DNA of 11,071 bases from an uncultured Methanosarcinales archaeon (GTDB taxonomy: Archaea; Nanobdellota; Nanobdellia; Woesearchaeales; UBA583): the NCBI GenBank assembly GCA_964429995.1, contig CAYSDY010000005.1, forward strand, positions 20,930-32,000, given 5' to 3'. The notes below the pieces were generated by a model that worked only from the letters and a program-made list of their open reading frames with translations, made no database searches and was not told where the DNA came from. Numbering within the stretch: the stretch's first letter is position 1; each line of letters begins with the position of its first letter. This document shows, in pieces, positions 2,854 to 11,071 of the stretch. The translations under genes and the position numbers were made by a program.

Positions 2854-3663
2854 ATGGATAAAAAAAAATATATAAAACTATCAATCTTATTATTGGTTTT
2901 GTCAGGTTTAGTATTTTTAGCATACTACTACATGCCAAATATAAACAGAGTTGTTGTACCCATGCAATTAGTTGAAGTTTCAGTTCTTCCAACTGATGTA
3001 GATTATTTAAAATCAAGAGAAGAAGAACAGACTGCACTTGAAAATGCAGGTTCTGATTCAAAAAAGATTGATTTGCATTTATCTTTTGCAGAAAAAAGAC
3101 TATCTGAATCATTGCAAATGAAAAAACTTGGAAGAACCAAAGAACACTACGATACTTTTAGAGATTACACAAATGAACTTACATACGCATCCTCATATAT
3201 GACAAAAACAGAAGACATTATAAGTATGCTAAATAAACATTCTAAGATAATATTAGACTACGAAATAGATCTAGAAACAAAATCTAATGTGTTATCAATT
3301 ATAAACAACCAGTTATCATACATTGCAAAAGAAGAGAAAAATCCTGAAAAAGAATTCAAACTTTATACATCCATCTTGCAAAAACAAATAGAAATCATGA
3401 ATAAATTGATTGATGATAAAGTTGCAGAGAATGATTTTTATTCTTTTGCAAGATTATATAGCCAAAGACAGCAAAACATTAAGTTCTTAGTTGTTGATAA
3501 TTCACAAAATACAGCATTTATAGGCAAAATAAAAGATGAAATAGGATCACAGAGTAATCAGCTTGAAAAACTTATTGCTAAAGCTCCAACAGATGGCATA
3601 AAACAATCTTTGACAATGCTTTTAAATGAGAACAAGATGATGTTTGCTCCTTTGGATGCGTAA
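2854..3663 (+). CDS. N-terminally membrane-anchored, predominantly alpha-helical protein (269 aa), function unknown
   Basis: A single N-terminal TM is present (KKKYIKLSILLLVLSGLVFLAYYY). The remainder is K/E/L/I/N-rich with a helical or coiled-coil character. The segment LHLSFAEKRLSES resembles the helical DUF5667-type motif from memory. A 4-nt gap to the upstream gene suggests an operon. Confidence 0.75.
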   Translation: MDKKKYIKLSILLLVLSGLVFLAYYYMPNINRVVVPMQLVEVSVLPTDVDYLKSREEEQTALENAGSDSKKIDLHLSFAEKRLSESLQMKKLGRTKEHYDTFRDYTNELTYASSYMTKTEDIISMLNKHSKIILDYEIDLETKSNVLSIINNQLSYIAKEEKNPEKEFKLYTSILQKQIEIMNKLIDDKVAENDFYSFARLYSQRQQNIKFLVVDNSQNTAFIGKIKDEIGSQSNQLEKLIAKAPTDGIKQSLTMLLNENKMMFAPLDA

Positions 3664-3763: not shown

Positions 3764-4141
3764 ATGCCAAATAAAAAATCTTTTGTGCCATCAATTGTTG
3801 CAGTATTGCTTGTTTTTACAACAATTGTATCTTTTATCATACTTATGGGATGGCATCTATCACTTATAGATGGGATAAGTTATGAATTAAAACACAAGAC
3901 AAGATTAGACAATATGCAGATATTAGGTTTTAATGATAGTTCTATTCTTCTTGTTAATGTAAGAGAATTAGAATTTGAGCCAACACTCCTTAAAATCAAC
4001 AACAACACATGTCCTCTAAATCCTTCAAAATACAGATTAGGGATAAATGCAATAAATCTTAGTGCGTGTCTTGAATCAGGTTATAATGATATATTCTTAA
4101 CTGATGGCAAAAACACATACACATACAGCACATACAGATAA
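3764..4141 (+). CDS. Small N-terminally anchored protein (125 aa), possible class III signal peptide / pilin-like
   Basis: MPNKKS followed by a 23-aa hydrophobic segment, FVPSIVAVLLVFTTIVSFIILMG. This is followed by a ~90-aa beta-rich body with two Cys (NNTCPLNP...LSACLESG). It appears to have its own promoter-like box. Confidence 0.7.
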   Translation: MPNKKSFVPSIVAVLLVFTTIVSFIILMGWHLSLIDGISYELKHKTRLDNMQILGFNDSSILLVNVRELEFEPTLLKINNNTCPLNPSKYRLGINAINLSACLESGYNDIFLTDGKNTYTYSTYR

Positions 4142-7100
4142 TTAAAGTATCATATCAAGTTTTTCAACTATTGTTTTTCTGTTATATATTTCTGACTTAC
4201 TTCCTAAAAATATTTTATATCTTTTCTGAACCTGATATGATGTTGTTACTATGTAAAATTTATCATATTTAAGTTTTAGGTTATGAAGTTTTAATAATAG
4301 TGATTTTTTCCTAAATTTAAACATTTTTCCTGTTTCAATTTCTATTGCAATCAGTCTTTTTGATTTATCATAAAATATAATATCAGCATCTTTTACAACA
4401 TTAACATCAACTTTGTATCCTTTATTTTGTATGTACTCTCTTAATTGTTCAACAAGAAACGTATGTTCAATTGATTCAACATTATTAGTTTTAACAAAAT
4501 ATTCTTTATACCTTCTATCATTTAAGCCTACAAAATTACCAATTCCAAACCCTGTTGACATAAGATAATTCTTTTCTTCACATGTTAACATAAGACTTTC
4601 AAAAACATTTTTAGAAGTGTCAATCTTGATTTTACAGTCTTCTTTTCTACTTAATGGGTATTTTTTAGAATAGAACTTTTCATTAGGGTTTGTTGTAATA
4701 ATCCTGTGTTCATTTTCACTTGCAATTATGTTTAATGCTTCATGTCTGTTGTCAAGTATTAATATTCCTTGTCCAACATCAGCCATTTTAAGTATATTAC
4801 ATTCCTTTTCAGATAAATTAAACATTTTTGATAACATCTCAATTCCTGCACTTTTCTGTTTTAAAAGTACTGTATATGAGATATTTGTAATTATTGCTCT
4901 AGCATTGTATGAATTTATCAAATCTTCTAAATCCTGAGTTACAAGCAATATTCCAAGATTAAATTTTCTACATGTTTTAACTATTTCAAATATATAATTA
5001 GCATCAGAGCTGTTATTTATCAAAAGCCATGCCTCATCAATAAGAAGTATTTTTTTAACTGATGAATTTTTTTTCATTCTTGTATATATCTCTTCAAGTA
5101 TTATAAACATCATAACAGGTTTAAGTTGCTTATGAATTTTGGATATATCAAAATTAATCCATGCCTCATCACTTATATTTACAGAAGTTTGAGCATTTAA
5201 AAATGAAAAAACACCATATACATATATGTATAATCTGTTTATCAGCGATTCGTAACTATATTGCTCCATTTTTGATGCCTTTTTATAATTTTTTTCAAGT
5301 ATTTTATACAAATCTTCAAGAATAGGCATTTTCTTTGATTCATAACTTTCATCAAATATTCCATACAAATCATATACCTCTTTTAAGTTTTTATCAAGAA
5401 CAGTTCTTTGTGCAAATGTAAGTTCACCAAGCATTATTGCAAATAATTCAAGTAATGACATTCTTTTCTGCATATATGTCTGGCTTAACAAATCAAGCGG
5501 ATTAATTATAGATTTTTTTTCTTTTGATATTTCAATATTTTTACCCTTAGCATACTCTGTTATTCCCATGTATTCTCCTTGTGGATCTATTATTATGATA
5601 TTTGTTCCCATCATAAAATTTCTTAAAAGAAATAGTTTTGAAAAATAGCTTTTTCCTCCCCCAGAAGTTGAAAGAATCAATCCATTTGCATTTGGCAATT
5701 TAAAAACATCTCTTATTATTGGAATCATGTTGCTATTAACTCCAAATAGGCTACCATATTCATCGTTTTCCATAAACCTGCTTGTAAAAGGGAAAAATGC
5801 ACTAAGAGCTCTTGAAGTAATATTTTTCTTATTATTTTTTACAGGGTTATGTCTTATAGGAGAATTGATTTTATAATTTTCAGCCTGTCTAAACTTTTCA
5901 ACATCACAAAGCAACATTACAGAGTTTAAGCTTGTTATCACCTTTTCTGTAAGATAATCCATTTCACTTTTTTTATCTGAATGTATGCTAAATGAAAGTG
6001 TAATATTAAAAAGCCTCTCATCACCTTTTTGCAGGCTTTCTAATACATTTAATGTGTCATTATGCTGAATTTGTAAGGATGGATTAATTGAATTATTCAA
6101 AGTATATGCATAAAGGTCAGCCCTTTGTTTTATTATTTGCCTGTTAAGCATTATCATAACATCTTCAATTTTAAAGGGTTCTATGTGAAAAGACATATCA
6201 ATATTTTCATTGTTTGCAATTATTGTTGATATGAATCCAGGCTCAACACTTCTGGGGTACCCTTTTACAATCACTGTTCTGTAAAATCTATTATCAATCT
6301 TTATGTAATCAAGTCTGCCAGTTATCTTTAAAGGCCCAGTAAAATGAGTTATAGCCTGTTTGTTCTCAAATCCAGATTTTTTATCAGAATCAAAATCATA
6401 ATGCATATTTGTTTTATTTTCCCTATTATAGAATTTTCTGTAAAAATATATCAATTCATCATTTTTTAAAAGATATGGCTTAATCTGAAGGTTTTTAAGA
6501 TTATCACTAAATATTAAGGATTCTACATCAATATTTCTAAATTCCTCAAGTATTACAAAAAATTCCTTATTTCTTAGATGATTTTTTTTTATATAATCAT
6601 CAAGAAAAACCCTATAAGAACTGCAAAGTTGTGCATAGTCTGCAATGTTTTGATTAATTTTATGGTTTTGCCTTGTAAAATCTAAAACGAGTGAGTCAGT
6701 TAGAACAACTATTTGAATGCTATTGTTAAGCGAATTTAGAAGTTTTTCAAAGCATTTTAATGTATCCTTTTTAGATTCATCATTAAGAATATCAAAATCA
6801 ATAGGCATAACTTTAAACACGCATATTCTTTTTTCTTTTTTTACTCCACTTGTTTTGTTTTGCAATATAGTAATTTTATAATCATCAATTCTGCTTATAG
6901 GTATAAGATCATTCATATCATCACTATCCTGCTCTATTACAATATTTCTAAGAAAAAAAAACATATACTTGCAAAACTGCATCATATCAAAAAATGCAAA
7001 ACCTATCATCATTGTAACAAGCAATGGAACCAAAAACCAATATACAAATATAATATTAAGATTGCTTTTTATTGCTAAAATCATAAAAGGCATAAAAATA

Positions 7101-7183
7101 CATATTAAGACTATTTGCTTAAAAGTTAGATTGAAGAATATTTTTTCTTCATATTCAAGCTGTTTAGGAATTTCATAAGCCAT
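4142..7183 (-). CDS. virB4: VirB3(PrgI-like)-VirB4 family T4SS ATPase fusion with an additional C-terminal PD-(D/E)xK nuclease-like domain (1013 aa)
   Basis: The N-terminus EIPKQLEYEEKIFFNLTFKQ plus two TM helices is PrgI/VirB3-like. The VirB4 N-domain motif is FYRTVIVKGYPRSVEPGFISTII...IDMSFHIEPF. Walker A is LILSTSGGGKSYF and Walker B is KKILLIDEAWLL, followed by GILLVTQDLEDL. About 150 extra residues follow the ATPase. The start overlaps the upstream gene's stop by 11 nt. Confidence 0.88.
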   Translation of the reverse strand: MAYEIPKQLEYEEKIFFNLTFKQIVLICIFMPFMILAIKSNLNIIFVYWFLVPLLVTMMIGFAFFDMMQFCKYMFFFLRNIVIEQDSDDMNDLIPISRIDDYKITILQNKTSGVKKEKRICVFKVMPIDFDILNDESKKDTLKCFEKLLNSLNNSIQIVVLTDSLVLDFTRQNHKINQNIADYAQLCSSYRVFLDDYIKKNHLRNKEFFVILEEFRNIDVESLIFSDNLKNLQIKPYLLKNDELIYFYRKFYNRENKTNMHYDFDSDKKSGFENKQAITHFTGPLKITGRLDYIKIDNRFYRTVIVKGYPRSVEPGFISTIIANNENIDMSFHIEPFKIEDVMIMLNRQIIKQRADLYAYTLNNSINPSLQIQHNDTLNVLESLQKGDERLFNITLSFSIHSDKKSEMDYLTEKVITSLNSVMLLCDVEKFRQAENYKINSPIRHNPVKNNKKNITSRALSAFFPFTSRFMENDEYGSLFGVNSNMIPIIRDVFKLPNANGLILSTSGGGKSYFSKLFLLRNFMMGTNIIIIDPQGEYMGITEYAKGKNIEISKEKKSIINPLDLLSQTYMQKRMSLLELFAIMLGELTFAQRTVLDKNLKEVYDLYGIFDESYESKKMPILEDLYKILEKNYKKASKMEQYSYESLINRLYIYVYGVFSFLNAQTSVNISDEAWINFDISKIHKQLKPVMMFIILEEIYTRMKKNSSVKKILLIDEAWLLINNSSDANYIFEIVKTCRKFNLGILLVTQDLEDLINSYNARAIITNISYTVLLKQKSAGIEMLSKMFNLSEKECNILKMADVGQGILILDNRHEALNIIASENEHRIITTNPNEKFYSKKYPLSRKEDCKIKIDTSKNVFESLMLTCEEKNYLMSTGFGIGNFVGLNDRRYKEYFVKTNNVESIEHTFLVEQLREYIQNKGYKVDVNVVKDADIIFYDKSKRLIAIEIETGKMFKFRKKSLLLKLHNLKLKYDKFYIVTTSYQVQKRYKIFLGSKSEIYNRKTIVEKLDMIL
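4325..4477 (-). other. Core of the putative PD-(D/E)xK (restriction-endonuclease-fold) domain, aa 903-953
   Basis: ESIEHTFLVEQLREYIQNKGYKVDVNVVKDADIIFYDKSKRLIAIEIETGK has an acidic residue in a helix, then a D-hhh strand, then an hhhh-E-h-x strand, then GK. This resembles NucS/DUF91- and Hjc-type cores, e.g. the pattern G-x-I-D-hh-x-x-D-x4-hhhh-E-h-K-x-G-K. Here the canonical K position is E950, and a K follows at 953. Confidence 0.45.
5027..5050 (-). other. Walker B (ILLIDEAW, aa 712-719)
   Basis: A hydrophobic strand followed by DEAW is the form typical of the VirB4/TraC/TrbE family. Confidence 0.85.
5648..5671 (-). other. Walker A / P-loop (STSGGGKS, aa 505-512)
   Basis: The reverse complement of 5648..5674 reads ctt tca act tct ggg gga gga aaa agc, which translates to LSTSGGGKS. 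Confidence 0.9.
6944..7183 (-). other. PrgI/VirB3-like membrane domain (aa 1-80)
   Basis: The motif IPKxLxxYxEKIFFxLTxKQ is followed by two hydrophobic helices (IVLICIFMPFMILAI; IIFVYWFLVPLLVTMMIGFAFF). Confidence 0.65.
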
Positions 7184-7958
7184 TTGCTGATACCTGCTGA
7201 TATTTTAGTGCATAAAAAAAACCTGCTATGTAAAGAATACTTACAAGCATAAGTCCTGCTGAATAGAAAAATGGTTTAAACAAAATTGCATCAGAACATA
7301 GTTTTTTTGTAATCATCATTATAAACGCTGAAGGGATTGACACAATATTAAAAAAAAGTATAATATTTAAAAAAAACATTCCAATCCTTCTTGTGTAAGT
7401 AATACATGTACAAAATATGACAAAAGGTAATAACACAATTCCTAATACAATTATTATAATTCTTATATAAAACAACAAAAGTGAGAACATAAGTACAATC
7501 GTTAATATTCCAAAAGCAATAATATCAAAATCTAAAAGCATATTGCTATCAATAACAAAATTTCTGCCTGCACTGTATGCAATTTGAGATATTATGTTAT
7601 TTAGTAAAGAGTACAAGTAAAATGATGCGTGTAAGAATATCATTGCAATAAGATTTTTTTTCAAGTTTTCCTTAGCATTATACCTTTTTTCAATAGCATA
7701 AGAAGAATTAATAAATTCAAATCCATTAAAACAGAGAACTATAACAAAGAAAAAAGATATTAGTTTAACATTAAACATCCACATATCCCTATATTCATCA
7801 AAATCAACATTGTAAGAATTTATGTATGTAAAAGCAGAAGAAAGAATATCGCTTGGAGACATAAAAAAAGATTTAAGATCAATAATCTCAAACCCATATA
7901 CATTTCCTATACCAATCAATATAAGTAAAGGCATTATGAATGCGATTTTCATCTTCAT
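7173..7958 (-). CDS. Polytopic membrane protein (~6-7 TM), VirB6/TrbL/CedA-like by topology and context (261 aa from the preferred start; the ORF track start at 7994 gives 273 aa)
   Basis: The preferred start is the ATG at 7958-7956, which forms an ATGA overlap with the TGA stop (7957-7955) of the upstream gene. It yields a signal-like N-terminus, MKMKIAFIMPLLILIGIGNVYG. Six or more further hydrophobic helices follow (e.g. LISFFFVIVLCF, IIAFGILTIVLMFSLLLFYI, IIIIVLGIVLLPFVIFCTCI, IGMFFLNIILFFNIVSIPSAFIMMI, AGLMLVSILYIAGFFYAL). The stop is TGA at 7173-7175. The function call rests on topology and position only. Confidence 0.8.
   Translation of the reverse strand: MKMKIAFIMPLLILIGIGNVYGFEIIDLKSFFMSPSDILSSAFTYINSYNVDFDEYRDMWMFNVKLISFFFVIVLCFNGFEFINSSYAIEKRYNAKENLKKNLIAMIFLHASFYLYSLLNNIISQIAYSAGRNFVIDSNMLLDFDIIAFGILTIVLMFSLLLFYIRIIIIVLGIVLLPFVIFCTCITYTRRIGMFFLNIILFFNIVSIPSAFIMMITKKLCSDAILFKPFFYSAGLMLVSILYIAGFFYALKYQQVSANGL
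7192..7195 (-). promoter_or_regulatory. Shine-Dalgarno-like AGGT 8 nt upstream of the virB4-like ATG
   Basis: The minus strand reads tcagcAGGTatcagcaaATG, inside the 3' end of the upstream gene. This fits coupled translation of an internal operon gene. Confidence 0.35.
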
Positions 7959-8317
7959 CCAAGTATAAAATTCACAATATAAGGAGCACTCCATATAATT
8001 ATTAGCCCTATTATTATGTAAACCATGGAATTTTTGGCATTATCTCTTTTTATATTATTATTTCCAGCAGTCATAAAGCTAAACCCTGCAAACAATATTG
8101 CGATCATTCCTATAATTGATCCTGCATACTTAAAAAGCATGTAAAGTTTTGCAACAGGCTTTAATATATTATCAAAGTTTTCTCTATCTTTTGTTGATAA
8201 ATCATCATCAATATCAAAACTTACCGAATCAGCATAAACTACATTTTCTGTAACCGATAAAAAATATAAGAAACAGAGCATAATTAGTATAAAAAAACAG
8301 TTTTTTTTTCTGTTCAT
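7955..8317 (-). CDS. Small secreted two-helix membrane protein, VirB2/TrbC/CedA1-type pilin candidate (120 aa)
   Basis: The signal peptide is MNRKKNCFFILIMLCFLYFLSVTENVVYA, followed by an acidic spacer. Hydrophobic helix 1 is LYMLFKYAGSIIGMIAILFAGFSFMTAG. A short basic loop, NNNIKRDNAKNS, joins it to hydrophobic helix 2, MVYIIIGLIIIWSAPYIVNFILG, at the C-terminus. It is the first gene of the operon. Confidence 0.8.
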   Translation of the reverse strand: MNRKKNCFFILIMLCFLYFLSVTENVVYADSVSFDIDDDLSTKDRENFDNILKPVAKLYMLFKYAGSIIGMIAILFAGFSFMTAGNNNIKRDNAKNSMVYIIIGLIIIWSAPYIVNFILG

Positions 8318-8338
8318 AAAACATATTTATCATTTAAG

Positions 8339-8346
8339 TTTAAAAA
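8339..8346 (-). promoter_or_regulatory. Candidate TATA box for the minus-strand three-gene operon
   Basis: The minus strand reads gaTTTTTAAActtaaatgataaatatgttttATG, with the box at -29..-22 relative to the ATG at 8317. No SD is visible, which suggests a leaderless first gene. Confidence 0.35.
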
Positions 8347-8488
8347 TCTTTCTATTTTTACAACTACAAAGTCATTAAAAACAAAACTAATTAAATAATG
8401 ACAAATCAAGGTTTCCTTGCGGTAAAACAGGCTTTTTGGATGAAAATAATAGGGGTTTATAAAGTTAATGTATCATTTTTTCGCAACC

Positions 8489-8498
8489 TTTATAAATA
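8489..8498 (+). promoter_or_regulatory. Strong TATA-consensus-like box (tttataaata), distal candidate promoter of the S-layer gene
   Basis: It matches the archaeal TTTAWATA-type consensus and lies ~210 nt upstream of the ATG at 8710, which would give a ~185-nt leader. Confidence 0.3.
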
Positions 8499-8609
8499 AA
8501 AAATGCCAATCTTATATTAGCCCTTGGAACAAGAATGAATATTTGGTTGTTTCATATTCGGGGGCTGGAAAAAAGTCAAATTGATTAATCAAAAAGTGGT
8601 AATAAATAA

Positions 8610-8616
8610 TTATATA
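8610..8616 (+). promoter_or_regulatory. Proximal TATA-like box (ttatata) upstream of the S-layer gene
   Basis: It lies ~95 nt upstream of the ATG at 8710. The implied ~70-nt leader would contain the weak hairpin 8657-8662/8674-8679 and the SD. Confidence 0.3.
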
Positions 8617-8693
8617 CCATTGATTATATCAGATTACTGTAAGTTCCTAAGCTAGGCAAGGTCTTGTAAGTGAACCTTGTACCGAATAAAAAA

Positions 8694-8698
8694 AGGTG
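8694..8698 (+). promoter_or_regulatory. Shine-Dalgarno (AGGTG) of the S-layer gene
   Basis: In aaaaAGGTGtaaaaacaaaaATG the motif is complementary to the CACCU of the 16S rRNA 3' end, with an 11-nt spacer. It is the clearest SD in the window, consistent with a highly expressed gene. Confidence 0.55.
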
Positions 8699-8709
8699 TA
8701 AAAACAAAA

Positions 8710-11071
8710 ATGAATAAATTAAGAAAAGCAACAAAAAGAATTGCTGCTATTGCAGCTTCAGCTGCTATGGTAAGTTCTGCTGTTTTTGGAGCAGGATTAA
8801 GCACATATCCTAACAATTTTGTTAAGAATGGCAAGTTTGTAGGTCAGGTTGTTGTAGGTTCAACAGCTGATGCTATGGATAGTACTTCAGCTTCAAGCGT
8901 TATTGAGGATTTGAAGGCAGAGTTCTCTGGAAGTTCTGAAAAAGTAGTAATTACTTATAAAAAATCAGGCTCAGGTGGAGAAGAATTAAATGCTGTAAGA
9001 AGCAATAATGAGTTAAACTACGGTGAGAACTTAGGAGATGTTACAGAACAGTCAGGTTTTGATTCTCGTGATATTGATGTTCTAGCAGATGGTAGATTCA
9101 GAAACGGTGTTTCAGATGAAGATTACGAACAGTTATTGTACGTAGCTTACGATAAGACAACTGGTTTTGGTAAATTCAACTACGCTTTAAGAGATAAAGT
9201 TGAAGATGTTAGAGACATTGTTGATGGTGTTTATTTTGAATACGATGATGTTTTTGCAATGTATGAGTTGTCACTTAAAACAGCAATAACAGGCACATTA
9301 ACAACATCTGCAAATAAGGATGACTTTATTGGTCAAGAACTTATAATAATGGGTAACGAATTCACAGTTGGTGATATTGCATTTACTGGTAACAATCTTG
9401 ATAAATTGGTATTACTTGGTGGAGCAAACAAGATATCATTAGGTGAAGGAGAAAGTACAAAAGTATCAATGGATGGCAAAGATTATGATATTGCTGTAAT
9501 GTCAGTTTCTGATACAAAAGTATTGTTGACTATAAACGGACAGTCAAGATCAATTTCAGAATACGATACAGAGGAGGTTTCAGGTATTACAGTTGCTGTT
9601 ACAGATTTAGTTTCATCTTCAAGAGATGCTGTAAAAGGTTATGCTGAGATAGTTGTTGGTGGAAACAAAGTTGAATTACTAGATGGTAACAAGCTTGTTA
9701 AAGTAAACAACGAAAAAATAAACGATATGTTTGAAGGTTATGAAATATGGTCTGACTTTACAGGTTCTGGAATTGATACAATACAGATTACATACAAAGT
9801 AAAGGACGATACATTATTGCAGAAAGGAGAGCACCTTGAAGATGTTTTATTCCAGTCTTTCAGATTAGTTTACGAAGGAACAAATGAACCAAAATACTCA
9901 ACAGTTGAAGTAAGAGTTAATGATGAGGATGTTAAGGTTTCTGGAAAAACAATTAGAGGAGAATCATTCTCAAGAGATTTGATACACCTAGGAGCTAAAA
10001 CAGCTGCTGACAGTATAGTTTACTTTAAAGGTAACAGAGCCGGAGACAGAACATTCTTTAGAAACTCTGAGGACTTTACAGCTGGTACAACAGGAACAGT
10101 AGGAGATTTAGCTGCAGCATTACTTGATGGAACAGCTCCAACATTCGACTTGACAAGTGCTAATACAAGAGGTTCAGGTTTCCTTTTATCAAAGGATAAT
10201 GATGAACAGTACATGTTTGAAATTAGAACTCTTGATACAAGTGATGTTGATAAAGAGATTGATTTCCTTGAATACCTAAGAGGTGGCGGAAAAGATGATA
10301 TTAAAGAGTCACAGTGGGAAACTAAATTAGCTTGGGGAGTAACAGGTTTATTAGATGGTACAAGTGCACCTACAAACAAAATATTAAATGTTACAAAACT
10401 TGGAAATCTTATAGGATTTGAGAATGATTTGTTACTAGACTTAACAAATGCTGAAACAATAGACATCAGTGCTACAACTCCAAAATTTGTATTCAAACTT
10501 GATAGTGCCGATACAAGAGGAGACAGTGCAACAGATGATCAGCAACAGGTAAGAGTTGAATTTGATCTTGATACAACAGATGATGAATTTATGATTAAAG
10601 GAGTTAGTTCATTAGATAGTACAGGAACACTTGCAACTTTTGCTAATGCAGGTTTTGAAAACAATGAATACAGAAATTCCGATAGAAAAACATACGTTGA
10701 TGTTTTCGGAACAAAAGTTGAATTTGATAACAAGGATAAAGAATTCGTAAGAATTATGGTTCCTGAAGAACAAGTTAGAGCAAATGTTAAATTAGTATTT
10801 GGTGCAGCTTCTGATTCATACACAGTAACAGTTGACGCTGATAAAGTTGACTCTAAAAAGAGTGAATTGAAAGCAGATGGTTACACAGTTGTAAAAGAAG
10901 AAAAACTAAGTGCTGAAGCAATAACATTTGATGTTAAATCAGCTGTTCTTGATACACAGGTTTCAGGTTCATCAGACATGATTGTTGTTGGTGGTCCAGC
11001 AATAAACTCAGTAGCAAGAAGTTTATTAGGTATAAATACATACACAATAGACCAAGCTGGCGTTTCTGAAA
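8710..11071 (+). CDS. Archaeal S-layer protein (Methanococcales/MJ0822-type S_layer_N family), 3'-truncated by the window edge (787 codons visible)
   Basis: I translated it by hand and found no stop from the ATG at 8710 to the end of the window. The N-terminus is MNKLRKATKRIAAIAASAAMVSSAVFGAGLSTYPNNFVKNGKFVGQVVVGSTADAMDSTSASSVIEDLKAEF, i.e. a signal peptide followed by the VVVG-x-x-A-x-x-D...(A/S)xxI motif of archaeal S-layer N-domains. The late motif SDMIVVGGPAINSVARSLLG resembles the conserved (L/V)VGGPxxN segment. Composition is acidic and T/G/V/D-rich with no Cys. Confidence 0.8.
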   Translation, partial: MNKLRKATKRIAAIAASAAMVSSAVFGAGLSTYPNNFVKNGKFVGQVVVGSTADAMDSTSASSVIEDLKAEFSGSSEKVVITYKKSGSGGEELNAVRSNNELNYGENLGDVTEQSGFDSRDIDVLADGRFRNGVSDEDYEQLLYVAYDKTTGFGKFNYALRDKVEDVRDIVDGVYFEYDDVFAMYELSLKTAITGTLTTSANKDDFIGQELIIMGNEFTVGDIAFTGNNLDKLVLLGGANKISLGEGESTKVSMDGKDYDIAVMSVSDTKVLLTINGQSRSISEYDTEEVSGITVAVTDLVSSSRDAVKGYAEIVVGGNKVELLDGNKLVKVNNEKINDMFEGYEIWSDFTGSGIDTIQITYKVKDDTLLQKGEHLEDVLFQSFRLVYEGTNEPKYSTVEVRVNDEDVKVSGKTIRGESFSRDLIHLGAKTAADSIVYFKGNRAGDRTFFRNSEDFTAGTTGTVGDLAAALLDGTAPTFDLTSANTRGSGFLLSKDNDEQYMFEIRTLDTSDVDKEIDFLEYLRGGGKDDIKESQWETKLAWGVTGLLDGTSAPTNKILNVTKLGNLIGFENDLLLDLTNAETIDISATTPKFVFKLDSADTRGDSATDDQQQVRVEFDLDTTDDEFMIKGVSSLDSTGTLATFANAGFENNEYRNSDRKTYVDVFGTKVEFDNKDKEFVRIMVPEEQVRANVKLVFGAASDSYTVTVDADKVDSKKSELKADGYTVVKEEKLSAEAITFDVKSAVLDTQVSGSSDMIVVGGPAINSVARSLLGINTYTIDQAGVSE

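Follow-up and report, generated by a model that had tools for sequence, protein, structure and literature searches.

A nuclease-fused VirB4 protein in a predicted minimal DNA-translocation module of DPANN archaea

Described systems and the present locus

Archaeal conjugative plasmids, integrative-conjugative elements (ICEs) as well as the Ced and Ted systems of the Sulfolobales and Thermoproteales are all without a recognisable relaxase (PMC6563490, PMC9905601), and how these systems process their DNA for transfer is therefore an open question. Ced and Ted share an archaeal core that consists of a VirB2-like pilin, a VirB6-like protein with seven transmembrane (TM) helices and a VirB4-like ATPase, with no recognisable sequence similarity between the two systems (PMC9905601). 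Here we describe a locus of this general composition in a window of 11,071 nucleotides, the whole stretch of DNA that was analysed (contig CAYSDY010000005.1, positions 20,930 to 32,000), which is filed under an uncultured Methanosarcinales archaeon and has been assigned to the GTDB lineage Woesearchaeales. Three overlapping genes on the minus strand, spanning 8317-4142, encode a VirB2/TrbC-type pilin, a polytopic middle protein and a large fusion protein that joins a VirB3/PrgI-like hairpin, a VirB4 ATPase and a predicted PD-(D/E)xK nuclease. On the basis of sequence comparisons and structure models, and with a probability that we put at roughly 0.72, this triad is read as a minimal DNA-translocation apparatus derived from a type IV secretion system (T4SS), of a type widespread in DPANN archaea of the Nanoarchaeota group; the window copy would be a deep-branching orphan of an element-borne family, and its nuclease would cut DNA at the motor.

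The resemblance of the window locus to Ced and Ted is one of architecture only. It lies on an archaeal chromosome and, as described for CedA and CedA1 and for VirB6 and VirB2, the N-terminus of its VirB6-like protein appears homologous to the pilin; a cleaved signal peptide like that predicted for the pilin is present in TedC (PMC9905601). In contrast to the window locus, a nuclease tail is lacking in Ced and Ted, and no report describes a nuclease fused to their motors; they are crenarchaeal systems fixed in the chromosome, with extra subunits (CedA2) or scattered genes (PMC9905601). The closest sequence relatives of the window VirB4 are VirB4 proteins of the Firmicutes/Tenericutes type.

Several of the same parts recur in the T4SS belonging to the candidate phyla radiation (CPR; Patescibacteria), namely a monoderm-type VirB4, similar to that of the mating-pair-formation class FATA (MPF-FATA), with PrgI/VirB3 and VirB6, and a VirB2-like pilin, which is unusual for monoderm systems and was found with the same Pfam models (PF18895, PF04956); the CPR system also has no relaxase and belongs to ultra-small episymbionts with reduced genomes (PMC12102498). 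That system, however, is bacterial and mostly chromosomal near dnaA, with pilin arrays and TrsD common, and no VirB3-VirB4 fusions were found and no nuclease is mentioned (PMC12102498), whereas the DPANN family described below is archaeal, usually element-borne and built around a VirB3-VirB4-nuclease fusion. Archaeal ICEs and the conjugative plasmids of Sulfolobus share with the relatives of the window locus tyrosine integrases, TFIIB beside the transfer genes, restriction-modification (R-M) cargo, VirB3 and VirB6 homologues and the lack of a relaxase, but employ a pair of ATPases, VirB4/TrbE and VirD4/TraG, and often type IV pilus parts (PMC6563490); in the DPANN family there is one ATPase only, to which the nuclease is fused, and the pilin is of the VirB2 type, and in the window copy the element context has been lost or was never present. 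Three traits set the family apart from Ced/Ted, the CPR T4SS and archaeal ICEs: there is only one ATPase, its VirB3, VirB4 and nuclease parts are fused, and a VirB4 of the monoderm type occurs together with a VirB2 pilin in an archaeon. A search of open-access papers and bioRxiv returned no published account of this DPANN triad or of a nuclease fused to VirB4; some members of the family are already automatically annotated as VirB4 family proteins.

The three proteins of the module

The genes of the triad are tightly coupled. The stop codon of the pilin gene and the start codon of the middle-protein gene overlap in an ATGA (TTGGATGAAGATG), and the middle-protein gene overlaps the VirB4 gene by 11 nt (ATGGCTTATGA), both junctions having been inspected directly in the letters; the coordinates are collected in Table 1.

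The VirB4-family ATPase is the sole ubiquitous T4SS protein, and by profile comparison the large protein has the features of both the VirB4 ATPase and the VirB3/PrgI hairpin. In NCBIfam, VirB4_plasma (6e-89) aligns residues 5-829 with model positions 3-893 of 894, and further matches are to the CD1110 family (5.6e-85, residues 124-812), TraC-F (1e-31) and VirB4_CagE (4e-30); Pfam P-loop_TraG matches at 3e-30 and the PDB VirB4 entry 4ag5 at 1e-27 over residues 496-830. The best curated matches of the module come from Mycoplasma ICEs and Firmicutes (VirB4_plasma/Mbov_0397, CD1110 and, for the pilin, Mbov_0395), and they include the N-terminal membrane part of the ATPase, but their scores are far under the cut-offs (299 vs 590, 286 vs 325 and 27 vs 40, respectively) and none covers residues 836-1013. 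Because the VirB4 matches all miss the curated equivalog or subfamily cut-offs, the large protein belongs to none of the named NCBIfam VirB4 families. The closest plasmid proteins, TrsE and CD1110-family VirB4 of Bacillus and Clostridium (Firmicutes), are 22-32% identical to it.

Conservation was counted in 41 aligned homologues and in 66 proteins derived from the related loci. None of the 66 locus-derived sequences departs from the P-loop residues K511 and S512 or from the Walker B residues D716 and E717, and the TraC_F_IV N-domain was found in 27 of the 41 homologues. At the N-terminus, with TM helices at residues 24-42 and 44-62, Pfam PrgI matches the window protein at 2.3e-4 (22.1 bits, under the cut-off of 27), and the same model matches 36/41 homologues, with a best value of 5.2e-7. 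In nine related loci the VirB3/PrgI part is a separate open reading frame (ORF), the split falling always at residues 114-118 in the numbering of the window protein, and this constant split point indicates that the N-terminal part of the window protein is a true fused VirB3 module. Loci in which the separate ORF runs into the beginning of a VirB4 gene whose product has about 900 aa include L055, L066, L067, L068, L070, L072, L078 and L084. In another locus (L079) VirB4 is broken mid-way into 430 and 545 aa and is probably a pseudogene.

The tail behind the ATPase is predicted to belong to the PD-(D/E)xK nuclease superfamily and to adopt a NucS-like fold. Its AlphaFold model, computed with 24 homologous tails, has a predicted local distance difference test score (pLDDT) of 91.8. 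A fold search was needed, since the profile of the tail gave no significant match among PDB sequences, only chance matches to ubiquitin and a marginal Cas4 motif match; Foldseek returned NucS (2vld, 7.8e-5, probability 1.0), a second NucS match (1e-4) and EndoMS (5gke, 5e-4), with probabilities of 0.99-1.0, followed lower down by Card1/Cdn1, YaeQ, BamHI, Hjc and XPF. With NucS/EndoMS and BamHI-type nucleases the tail shares a small beta subdomain and a restriction-endonuclease-like core, but those are free repair or restriction enzymes, whereas the window nuclease is fused to a membrane-anchored motor. The tail is present in 41/41 aligned homologues and in 66/66 locus-derived proteins, and in the latter H907, D934 (of the PD motif), E948, E950 and G952 are invariant, while E903 (61/66), K965 (61/66) and Y989 (65/66) are nearly so. 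No Pfam model matches the tail of the window protein, and the sole Pfam model that recurs among its homologues is CoiA_nuc, found in 4 of 25 tails with a best value of 1.2e-5.

The tail domain also occurs outside VirB4 proteins, and at 50% identity its family comprises about 800 clusters. There are stand-alone proteins of 170-190 aa, a form of 239 aa with a zinc ribbon in front of the domain, and forms of 370-395 aa in which several TM helices and a coiled coil precede it, the last of which shows that a membrane-anchored nuclease without a motor exists; the proteins of this kind that we examined are P0174, P0206, P0175, P0176, P0182 and P0188. The idea that all short proteins matching the tail are metagenomic fragments of VirB4 was rejected: P0177, P0181, P0203 and P0221 are such fragments, and others are truly stand-alone, zinc-ribbon or TM-anchored forms.

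The 120-aa protein has the features of a VirB2/TrbC-type pilin of T4SS, as judged from Pfam matches above the cut-offs to T4SS_pilin (2.9e-12, 46.9 bits, cut-off 26.6) and TrbC (2.9e-9, 37.5 bits, cut-off 27.9); the NCBIfam Mbov_0395 pilin-like model matches at 2.2e-6, under its cut-off. Residues 1-29 form a predicted Sec-type signal peptide ending in ...VVYA|DSV, and the mature protein is a two-helix hydrophobic hairpin with the polar loop NNNIKRDNAKN. It is 35-46% identical to the pilins encoded upstream of VirB4 in 23 related loci. The start of the gene is ambiguous within 7955-8353, public gene calls for this one locus giving 108, 120 and 127 aa; among the three, the 120-aa form, with the basic n-region MNRKKN, is in sequence the closest to the pattern of a signal peptide.

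The middle protein has 6-7 hydrophobic segments, arranged as an N-terminal signal or TM helix, a pilin-like hairpin (approximately residues 55-115) and four further TM helices, and its AlphaFold model is all-helical (pLDDT 87.5). Pfam and NCBIfam gave no match to it. As a search with the single sequence recovered only the protein itself, the family was assembled from the neighbours of VirB4 homologues; against a hidden Markov model of this family built without the window protein, the latter scores 80.3 bits, compared with -2.9 for the best of 500 shuffled sequences. Aligned with hhalign, the N-terminal 115 columns of the family correspond to nearly the whole pilin family (probability 97.4%, E 9e-12), and some family members have weak Pfam matches to TrbL_3 or T4SS_pilin. 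From its sequence and model we regard the middle protein as putatively VirB6/CedA-like.

An earlier note on this window, made from the letters alone, had described a coupled three-gene operon with the same two overlaps, whose products were a pilin resembling VirB2, a channel protein resembling VirB6 and, tethered to the membrane, a VirB3-VirB4 ATPase with a nuclease-like tail, in a probable episymbiont or reduced-genome archaeon. The ORF positions and letters bear out the operon, the family searches and structure models agree with the predicted products, and the tail acquires a fold. The same note had also placed the operon between a divergent S-layer gene and an abutting convergent gene and had seen no relaxase, VirD4/TraG, VirB8-11 or lytic transglycosylase in the window, and these observations hold as well (see below). 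As to the organism, the evidence from homologous sequences supports a DPANN-type archaeon, the close homologues all being from Woesearchaeota, Pacearchaeota or Nanoarchaeota. The view taken in the note of the architecture as singular, with Ced and Ted as the only frame of comparison, did not survive the survey of related loci that it had proposed.

A family of DPANN loci and an orphan member

The triad is less singular than had been held and represents a large, previously unremarked DPANN family. Homologues of the large protein form about 100 clusters at 35-45% identity, nearly all of about 1000 aa and carrying the names Woesearchaeota, Pacearchaeota or Nanoarchaeota, and when genomes were scanned, with each species represented once, at least 411 loci came to light. 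For the analysis of neighbourhoods the ORFs of 84 loci were clustered, and context was counted in the 40 loci with full flanks of 7 kb on each side. The gene order pilin-(DUF8186-like)-middle protein-VirB4 is kept in 65 loci, and the pilin is coupled upstream of VirB4 in at least 60. The optional DUF8186-like protein (380-470 aa) is present in most relatives, its gene following that of the pilin; it either stands alone or forms one protein of about 680 aa with the middle protein encoded next, and some loci have a small protein of about 130 aa in its place; the window has no such component, and the bare triad also occurs in L036, L053, L062 and L035. The DUF8186-like component is secreted and contains cysteines (seen at L008 7908-9068, L045 4847-6172, L005 7743-9746 and in many other loci), and it may conceivably be an adhesin or an analogue of VirB5/VirB8; no fold has been assigned to it.

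The relatives stand predominantly in the company of mobile elements. Some hallmark of mobile elements or defence was found in 36 of the 40 fully flanked loci and none in the remaining 4: a tyrosine integrase within 7 kb in 21, an N6/N4 DNA methylase just upstream in 17, a NikA-like ribbon-helix-helix (RHH) protein in 11, TFIIB in 9 and R-M genes of type I or III in about 10. The tyrosine integrase is the immediate neighbour of a tRNA gene in seven loci or more, and the pairs comprise tRNA-Asp in four genomes (L027, L029, L045, L063), tRNA-Leu (L022), tRNA-Thr (L073) and tRNA-Ile (L006). Two copies were counted in at least eight genomes. No relaxase or VirD4/TraG is among the neighbour families that recur in the 84 loci, and some relatives have only the small NikA-like RHH protein. 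Given the context of integrases, tRNA genes and TFIIB, together with the known traits of archaeal ICEs, the family is best read, on comparative grounds, as the transfer module of integrative elements that are probably conjugative. IMG/VR contains no close relatives (best 26-27%), and small extrachromosomal forms are consequently without support.

Other observations on these loci may be recorded here. Two whole modules lie about 3 kb apart on JAHWHZ010000001.1 (L013 and L038) and about 26 kb apart on JAIORZ010000011.1 (L050 and L061); in other metagenome-assembled genomes (MAGs) the two copies are on different contigs. A reverse transcriptase gene (Pfam RVT_1, family F24) was seen near the module in L005 (115-1236), L025, L053 and L054, and in relatives type I/III R-M operons with a Cas4-like/DUF2779 gene often come directly after VirB4. 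Some contigs with the module (L016, L020, L062, L071) are filed as MAGs of Bacteroidota, Cloacimonadota, 'bacterium', Bacteroides or Methanosarcinales, and there are many 'uncultured Methanosarcinales' records as well. These odd labels are probably errors of binning or labelling and not the true hosts; L016 also carries an archaeal TFIIB.

The window copy stands apart from this pattern. In the surrounding 23 kb (L001), none of the 13 hallmark families is present, and there is no integrase, methylase, RHH protein, TFIIB, R-M gene or tRNA. Domains of relaxases, VirD4/TraG, VirB8-11 and lytic transglycosylases were found neither in the ORFs of the window nor in the 23-kb region, and VirB8-, VirB1- and VirB9/10/11-like components were likewise not detected with Pfam or NCBIfam; a scan of the window for tRNA genes and Rfam families found none. 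The flanks consist of the S-layer gene, a cysteinyl-tRNA synthetase (CysRS) gene, genes for an RCC1/DUF2341 surface protein and the STT3 protein, and a polysaccharide synthase gene, the S-layer gene starting 392 bp from the operon, with CysRS about 5.6 kb away on one side and STT3 about 5.4 kb away on the other. The three operon genes have GC contents at third codon positions (GC3) of 0.195-0.214, and the flanking genes 0.14-0.245; as the operon values are within the range of the flanks, the idea that the window copy was acquired horizontally in recent times was rejected. In a neighbour-joining tree the window VirB4 is the deepest branch and at most 41% identical to any other protein, the other members having a median nearest-neighbour identity of 73%. 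An identical large protein is encoded on 9 contigs from at least 4 samples, and the residues of its ATPase and nuclease motifs are all intact. The missing hallmarks, the flank-like GC3, the deep branching, the recurrence in samples and the intact motifs together indicate an old, fixed and apparently functional orphan, and the window copy is probably a domesticated module that the cell keeps for its own DNA exchange.

The borders of the module are sharp on both sides. On one side, the last base of the convergent gene (4141) directly adjoins the VirB4 stop codon (4142-4144); the 125-aa product of this gene has no family match in Pfam, NCBIfam, PADLOC or PHROGs, and the N-terminus MPNKKS|FVPSIVAVLLVF resembles a class III (type IV pilin-like) archaeal signal peptide, followed by a small extracellular domain. 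On the other side lies the divergent S-layer gene, whose full-length product in L001 has 831 aa and matches Pfam S_layer_C above the cut-off (6.2e-7, 29.7 bits vs 23.9). The intergenic region presumably holds the promoters of both the operon and the S-layer gene, and direct inspection of the letters reveals a TATA-like, A/T-rich TTTTTAAA about 30 nt upstream of the pilin ATG. With the S-layer gene, the STT3 gene and the RCC1/DUF2341 and DUF5667 genes, the surroundings constitute a cell-envelope gene cluster.

Table 1. Positions, in window numbering, of the module, its predicted domains and motifs, and the neighbouring genes
Feature	Position	Strand	Remarks
Pilin gene	7955..8317	minus	120 aa; ORF list and direct reading
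Middle-protein gene	7173..7958	minus	261 aa from ATG at 7958; longest ORF (273 aa) starts at 7994
VirB3/PrgI - VirB4 ATPase - predicted PD-(D/E)xK nuclease fusion gene	4142..7183	minus	1013 aa
VirB3/PrgI-like module	6845..7183	minus	residues 1-113; PrgI match and TM helices
VirB4 core	4694..6814	minus	residues 124-830; TraC-like N-domain and P-loop ATPase
Walker A	5648-5662	minus	GGGKS
Walker B	5033-5038	minus	DE
C-terminal tail	4145..4678	minus	residues 836-1013; small beta-rich subdomain and predicted PD-(D/E)xK nuclease domain
Putative active site, E903	4475-4477	minus
Putative active site, D934	4382-4384	minus
Putative active site, E948	4340-4342	minus
Putative active site, E950	4334-4336	minus
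Putative active site, K965	4289-4291	minus
Convergent gene	3764..4141	plus	125-aa membrane-anchored product; module border on one side
Divergent intergenic region	8318..8709		392 bp, between pilin operon and S-layer gene; direct reading
S-layer protein gene	8710..11071	plus	partial in window; module border on other side; translation
Secreted protein gene	1089-2849	plus	586 aa; DUF2341 domain and six RCC1 repeats (beta-propeller)
Membrane-anchored DUF5667 protein gene	2854-3663	plus	directly after the RCC1/DUF2341 gene

Proposed mechanism, rival explanations and significance

In the mechanism that we propose, a VirB3-VirB4 hexamer would dock on the VirB6-like platform and pull the pilin from the membrane to build a conjugative-type VirB2 pilus through the S-layer, and the same motor would power the passage of DNA along the channel. 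Held at the cytoplasmic side of this motor, the nuclease would cut or nick the DNA and thereby provide an end, taking the place of the relaxase and VirD4 that do this in bacteria and are both absent here. In most relatives the module would export the tRNA-integrating element that carries it, and from these element-borne relatives the direction of export is argued; for the window copy we lean slightly towards this donor-side cutting and pumping, the presumed ancestral function of the family, over Ced-like import. The VirB4-nuclease fusion recalls HerA-NurA, the pairing of a motor of the HerA/FtsK superfamily with a nuclease, and this motor-nuclease link was raised by Beltran et al. when treating the missing relaxase (PMC9905601). 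Tentatively, and with less than even confidence, we extend the proposal: the VirB4-fused PD-(D/E)xK nuclease could be an archaeal substitute for relaxase and coupling protein that cuts the DNA and threads it into a VirB2/VirB6 conduit with one polypeptide, and that exists in mobile (ICE-borne) and domesticated versions in DPANN, the domesticated form exchanging DNA with host cells, or acquiring it from them, across the S-layer.

Several points weigh against the cut-and-pump proposal. The region examined covers 23 kb of the 63-kb source contig, with about 40 kb lying outside it, and the orphan context of the window copy, like the weak CoiA_nuc similarity, fits import equally well. Attachment (att)-type repeats of tRNA ends were not found in the 7-kb flanks of 11 relatives, and for this reason the location of the T4SS genes inside integrated elements is something that we infer. 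Foldseek gives TrwI/VirB6 of R388 as the top four PDB matches of the middle protein, at weak values (E 0.04-0.08, probability 0.75-0.93, TM-score about 0.3); the profile of the middle-protein family has no match among PDB sequences and tblastn of a typical family member none among plasmids, and because of these two null results the VirB6 assignment, which is based on the fold matches, the gene position and the pilin-like N-terminus, stays weak. Finally, the acidic pattern of the tail is E..PD..ExE, with ExE where ExK is usual. E..PD..ExE is the acidic pattern of BamHI, and by this analogy the nuclease is assumed to be active.

The rival that survives best, which we consider possible and on balance unlikely, is that the domesticated triad is a Ced/Ted-like importer that draws DNA from a host or neighbouring cell, the nuclease readying it for recombination or degrading it to nucleotides. 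Import is argued for the window copy from its orphan chromosomal site among envelope genes, with a host-like composition, from the weak similarity between the tail and the nuclease part of CoiA, a competence protein, and from the precedent of Ced and Ted, the sole characterised domesticated archaeal T4SS derivatives, which import DNA (PMC9905601); moreover, a module without a cognate element must benefit the cell, and loss of nucleotide synthesis in DPANN has been described in a 2026 preprint. On the other hand, the element-borne relatives share the nuclease fusion and all other parts, so that none of these was invented for import, and no genes for competence, recombination or nucleoside salvage are adjacent. 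The earlier note had suggested import of DNA or nucleotides, or a conduit to a host. This copy is isolated from other conjugation genes throughout the 23 kb; at the level of the family the module is best read as a transfer module of integrative elements and not as a housekeeping importer.

Much less probable is that the window lies inside a large, ordinary ICE and that the genes of this ICE for integrase, TFIIB, replication and further transfer functions are beyond the region examined, a possibility that the same note had raised against itself. Elements of this sort appear to house most of the relatives, large sizes occur among archaeal ICEs (median 64 kb in Thaumarchaeota; PMC6563490), and the remainder of the contig would offer room for one. 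The core envelope genes so close on either side of the operon, the complete lack of hallmark families in 23 kb, GC3 values equal to those of the flanks and a locus identical in at least 4 samples all speak against an ICE fragment.

It is also improbable that the pilus and channel form a conduit for effectors or nutrients, passing proteins to the host or non-DNA material from it, with the nuclease as a delivered toxin or in some other role; such a conduit has been proposed for the T4SS of Patescibacteria. An analogous CPR system, with VirB4, PrgI, VirB6 and a VirB2-like pilin and without a relaxase, is essential for epibiotic growth (PMC12102498), and the organism studied here is of the DPANN type. 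Against a conduit, the nuclease is fused behind the cytoplasmic ATPase domain of a membrane-anchored motor, and being fixed there it is unlikely to be secreted, which also makes a non-DNA conduit less likely; there are no adjacent effector-like or immunity-like genes, and the mobile elements with which the family is associated suggest DNA as the substrate.

That the module is no T4SS at all but a HerA/FtsK-type ATPase-nuclease for anti-phage defence or DNA repair, standing near small membrane proteins by chance, can be virtually dismissed: matches of the P-loop domain to PADLOC mad8 (3e-15, residues 498-812) and Pfam DUF87/HerA (7e-12) and the R-M genes often adjacent in relatives would favour it, but the models specific to VirB4 give much stronger matches that extend over the whole length, the TraC N-domain and PrgI recur among the homologues, and a true T4SS pilin is coupled upstream in at least 60 loci. 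A HerA/FtsK grouping, the other objection foreseen in the note, was rejected on the VirB4, TraC and PrgI matches, and readings as a defence system or terminase were rejected as the PADLOC and PHROGs matches are only to a generic P-loop; the PADLOC scan found no MADS component other than the mad8 match.

A VirB4 motor with a conserved nuclease is a concrete, biochemically testable candidate for the relaxase-free start of DNA transfer. The window copy would exemplify the domestication of such a module, as with Ced and Ted. The most abundant DPANN lineages, the Woesearchaeales and Pacearchaeales, may have elements of their own that are integrative, probably also conjugative, and equipped with a VirB2-type pilus, and elements of this kind bear on gene flow among symbionts and on contact with host cells, with a parallel in the T4SS of Patescibacteria that is essential for epibiotic growth.

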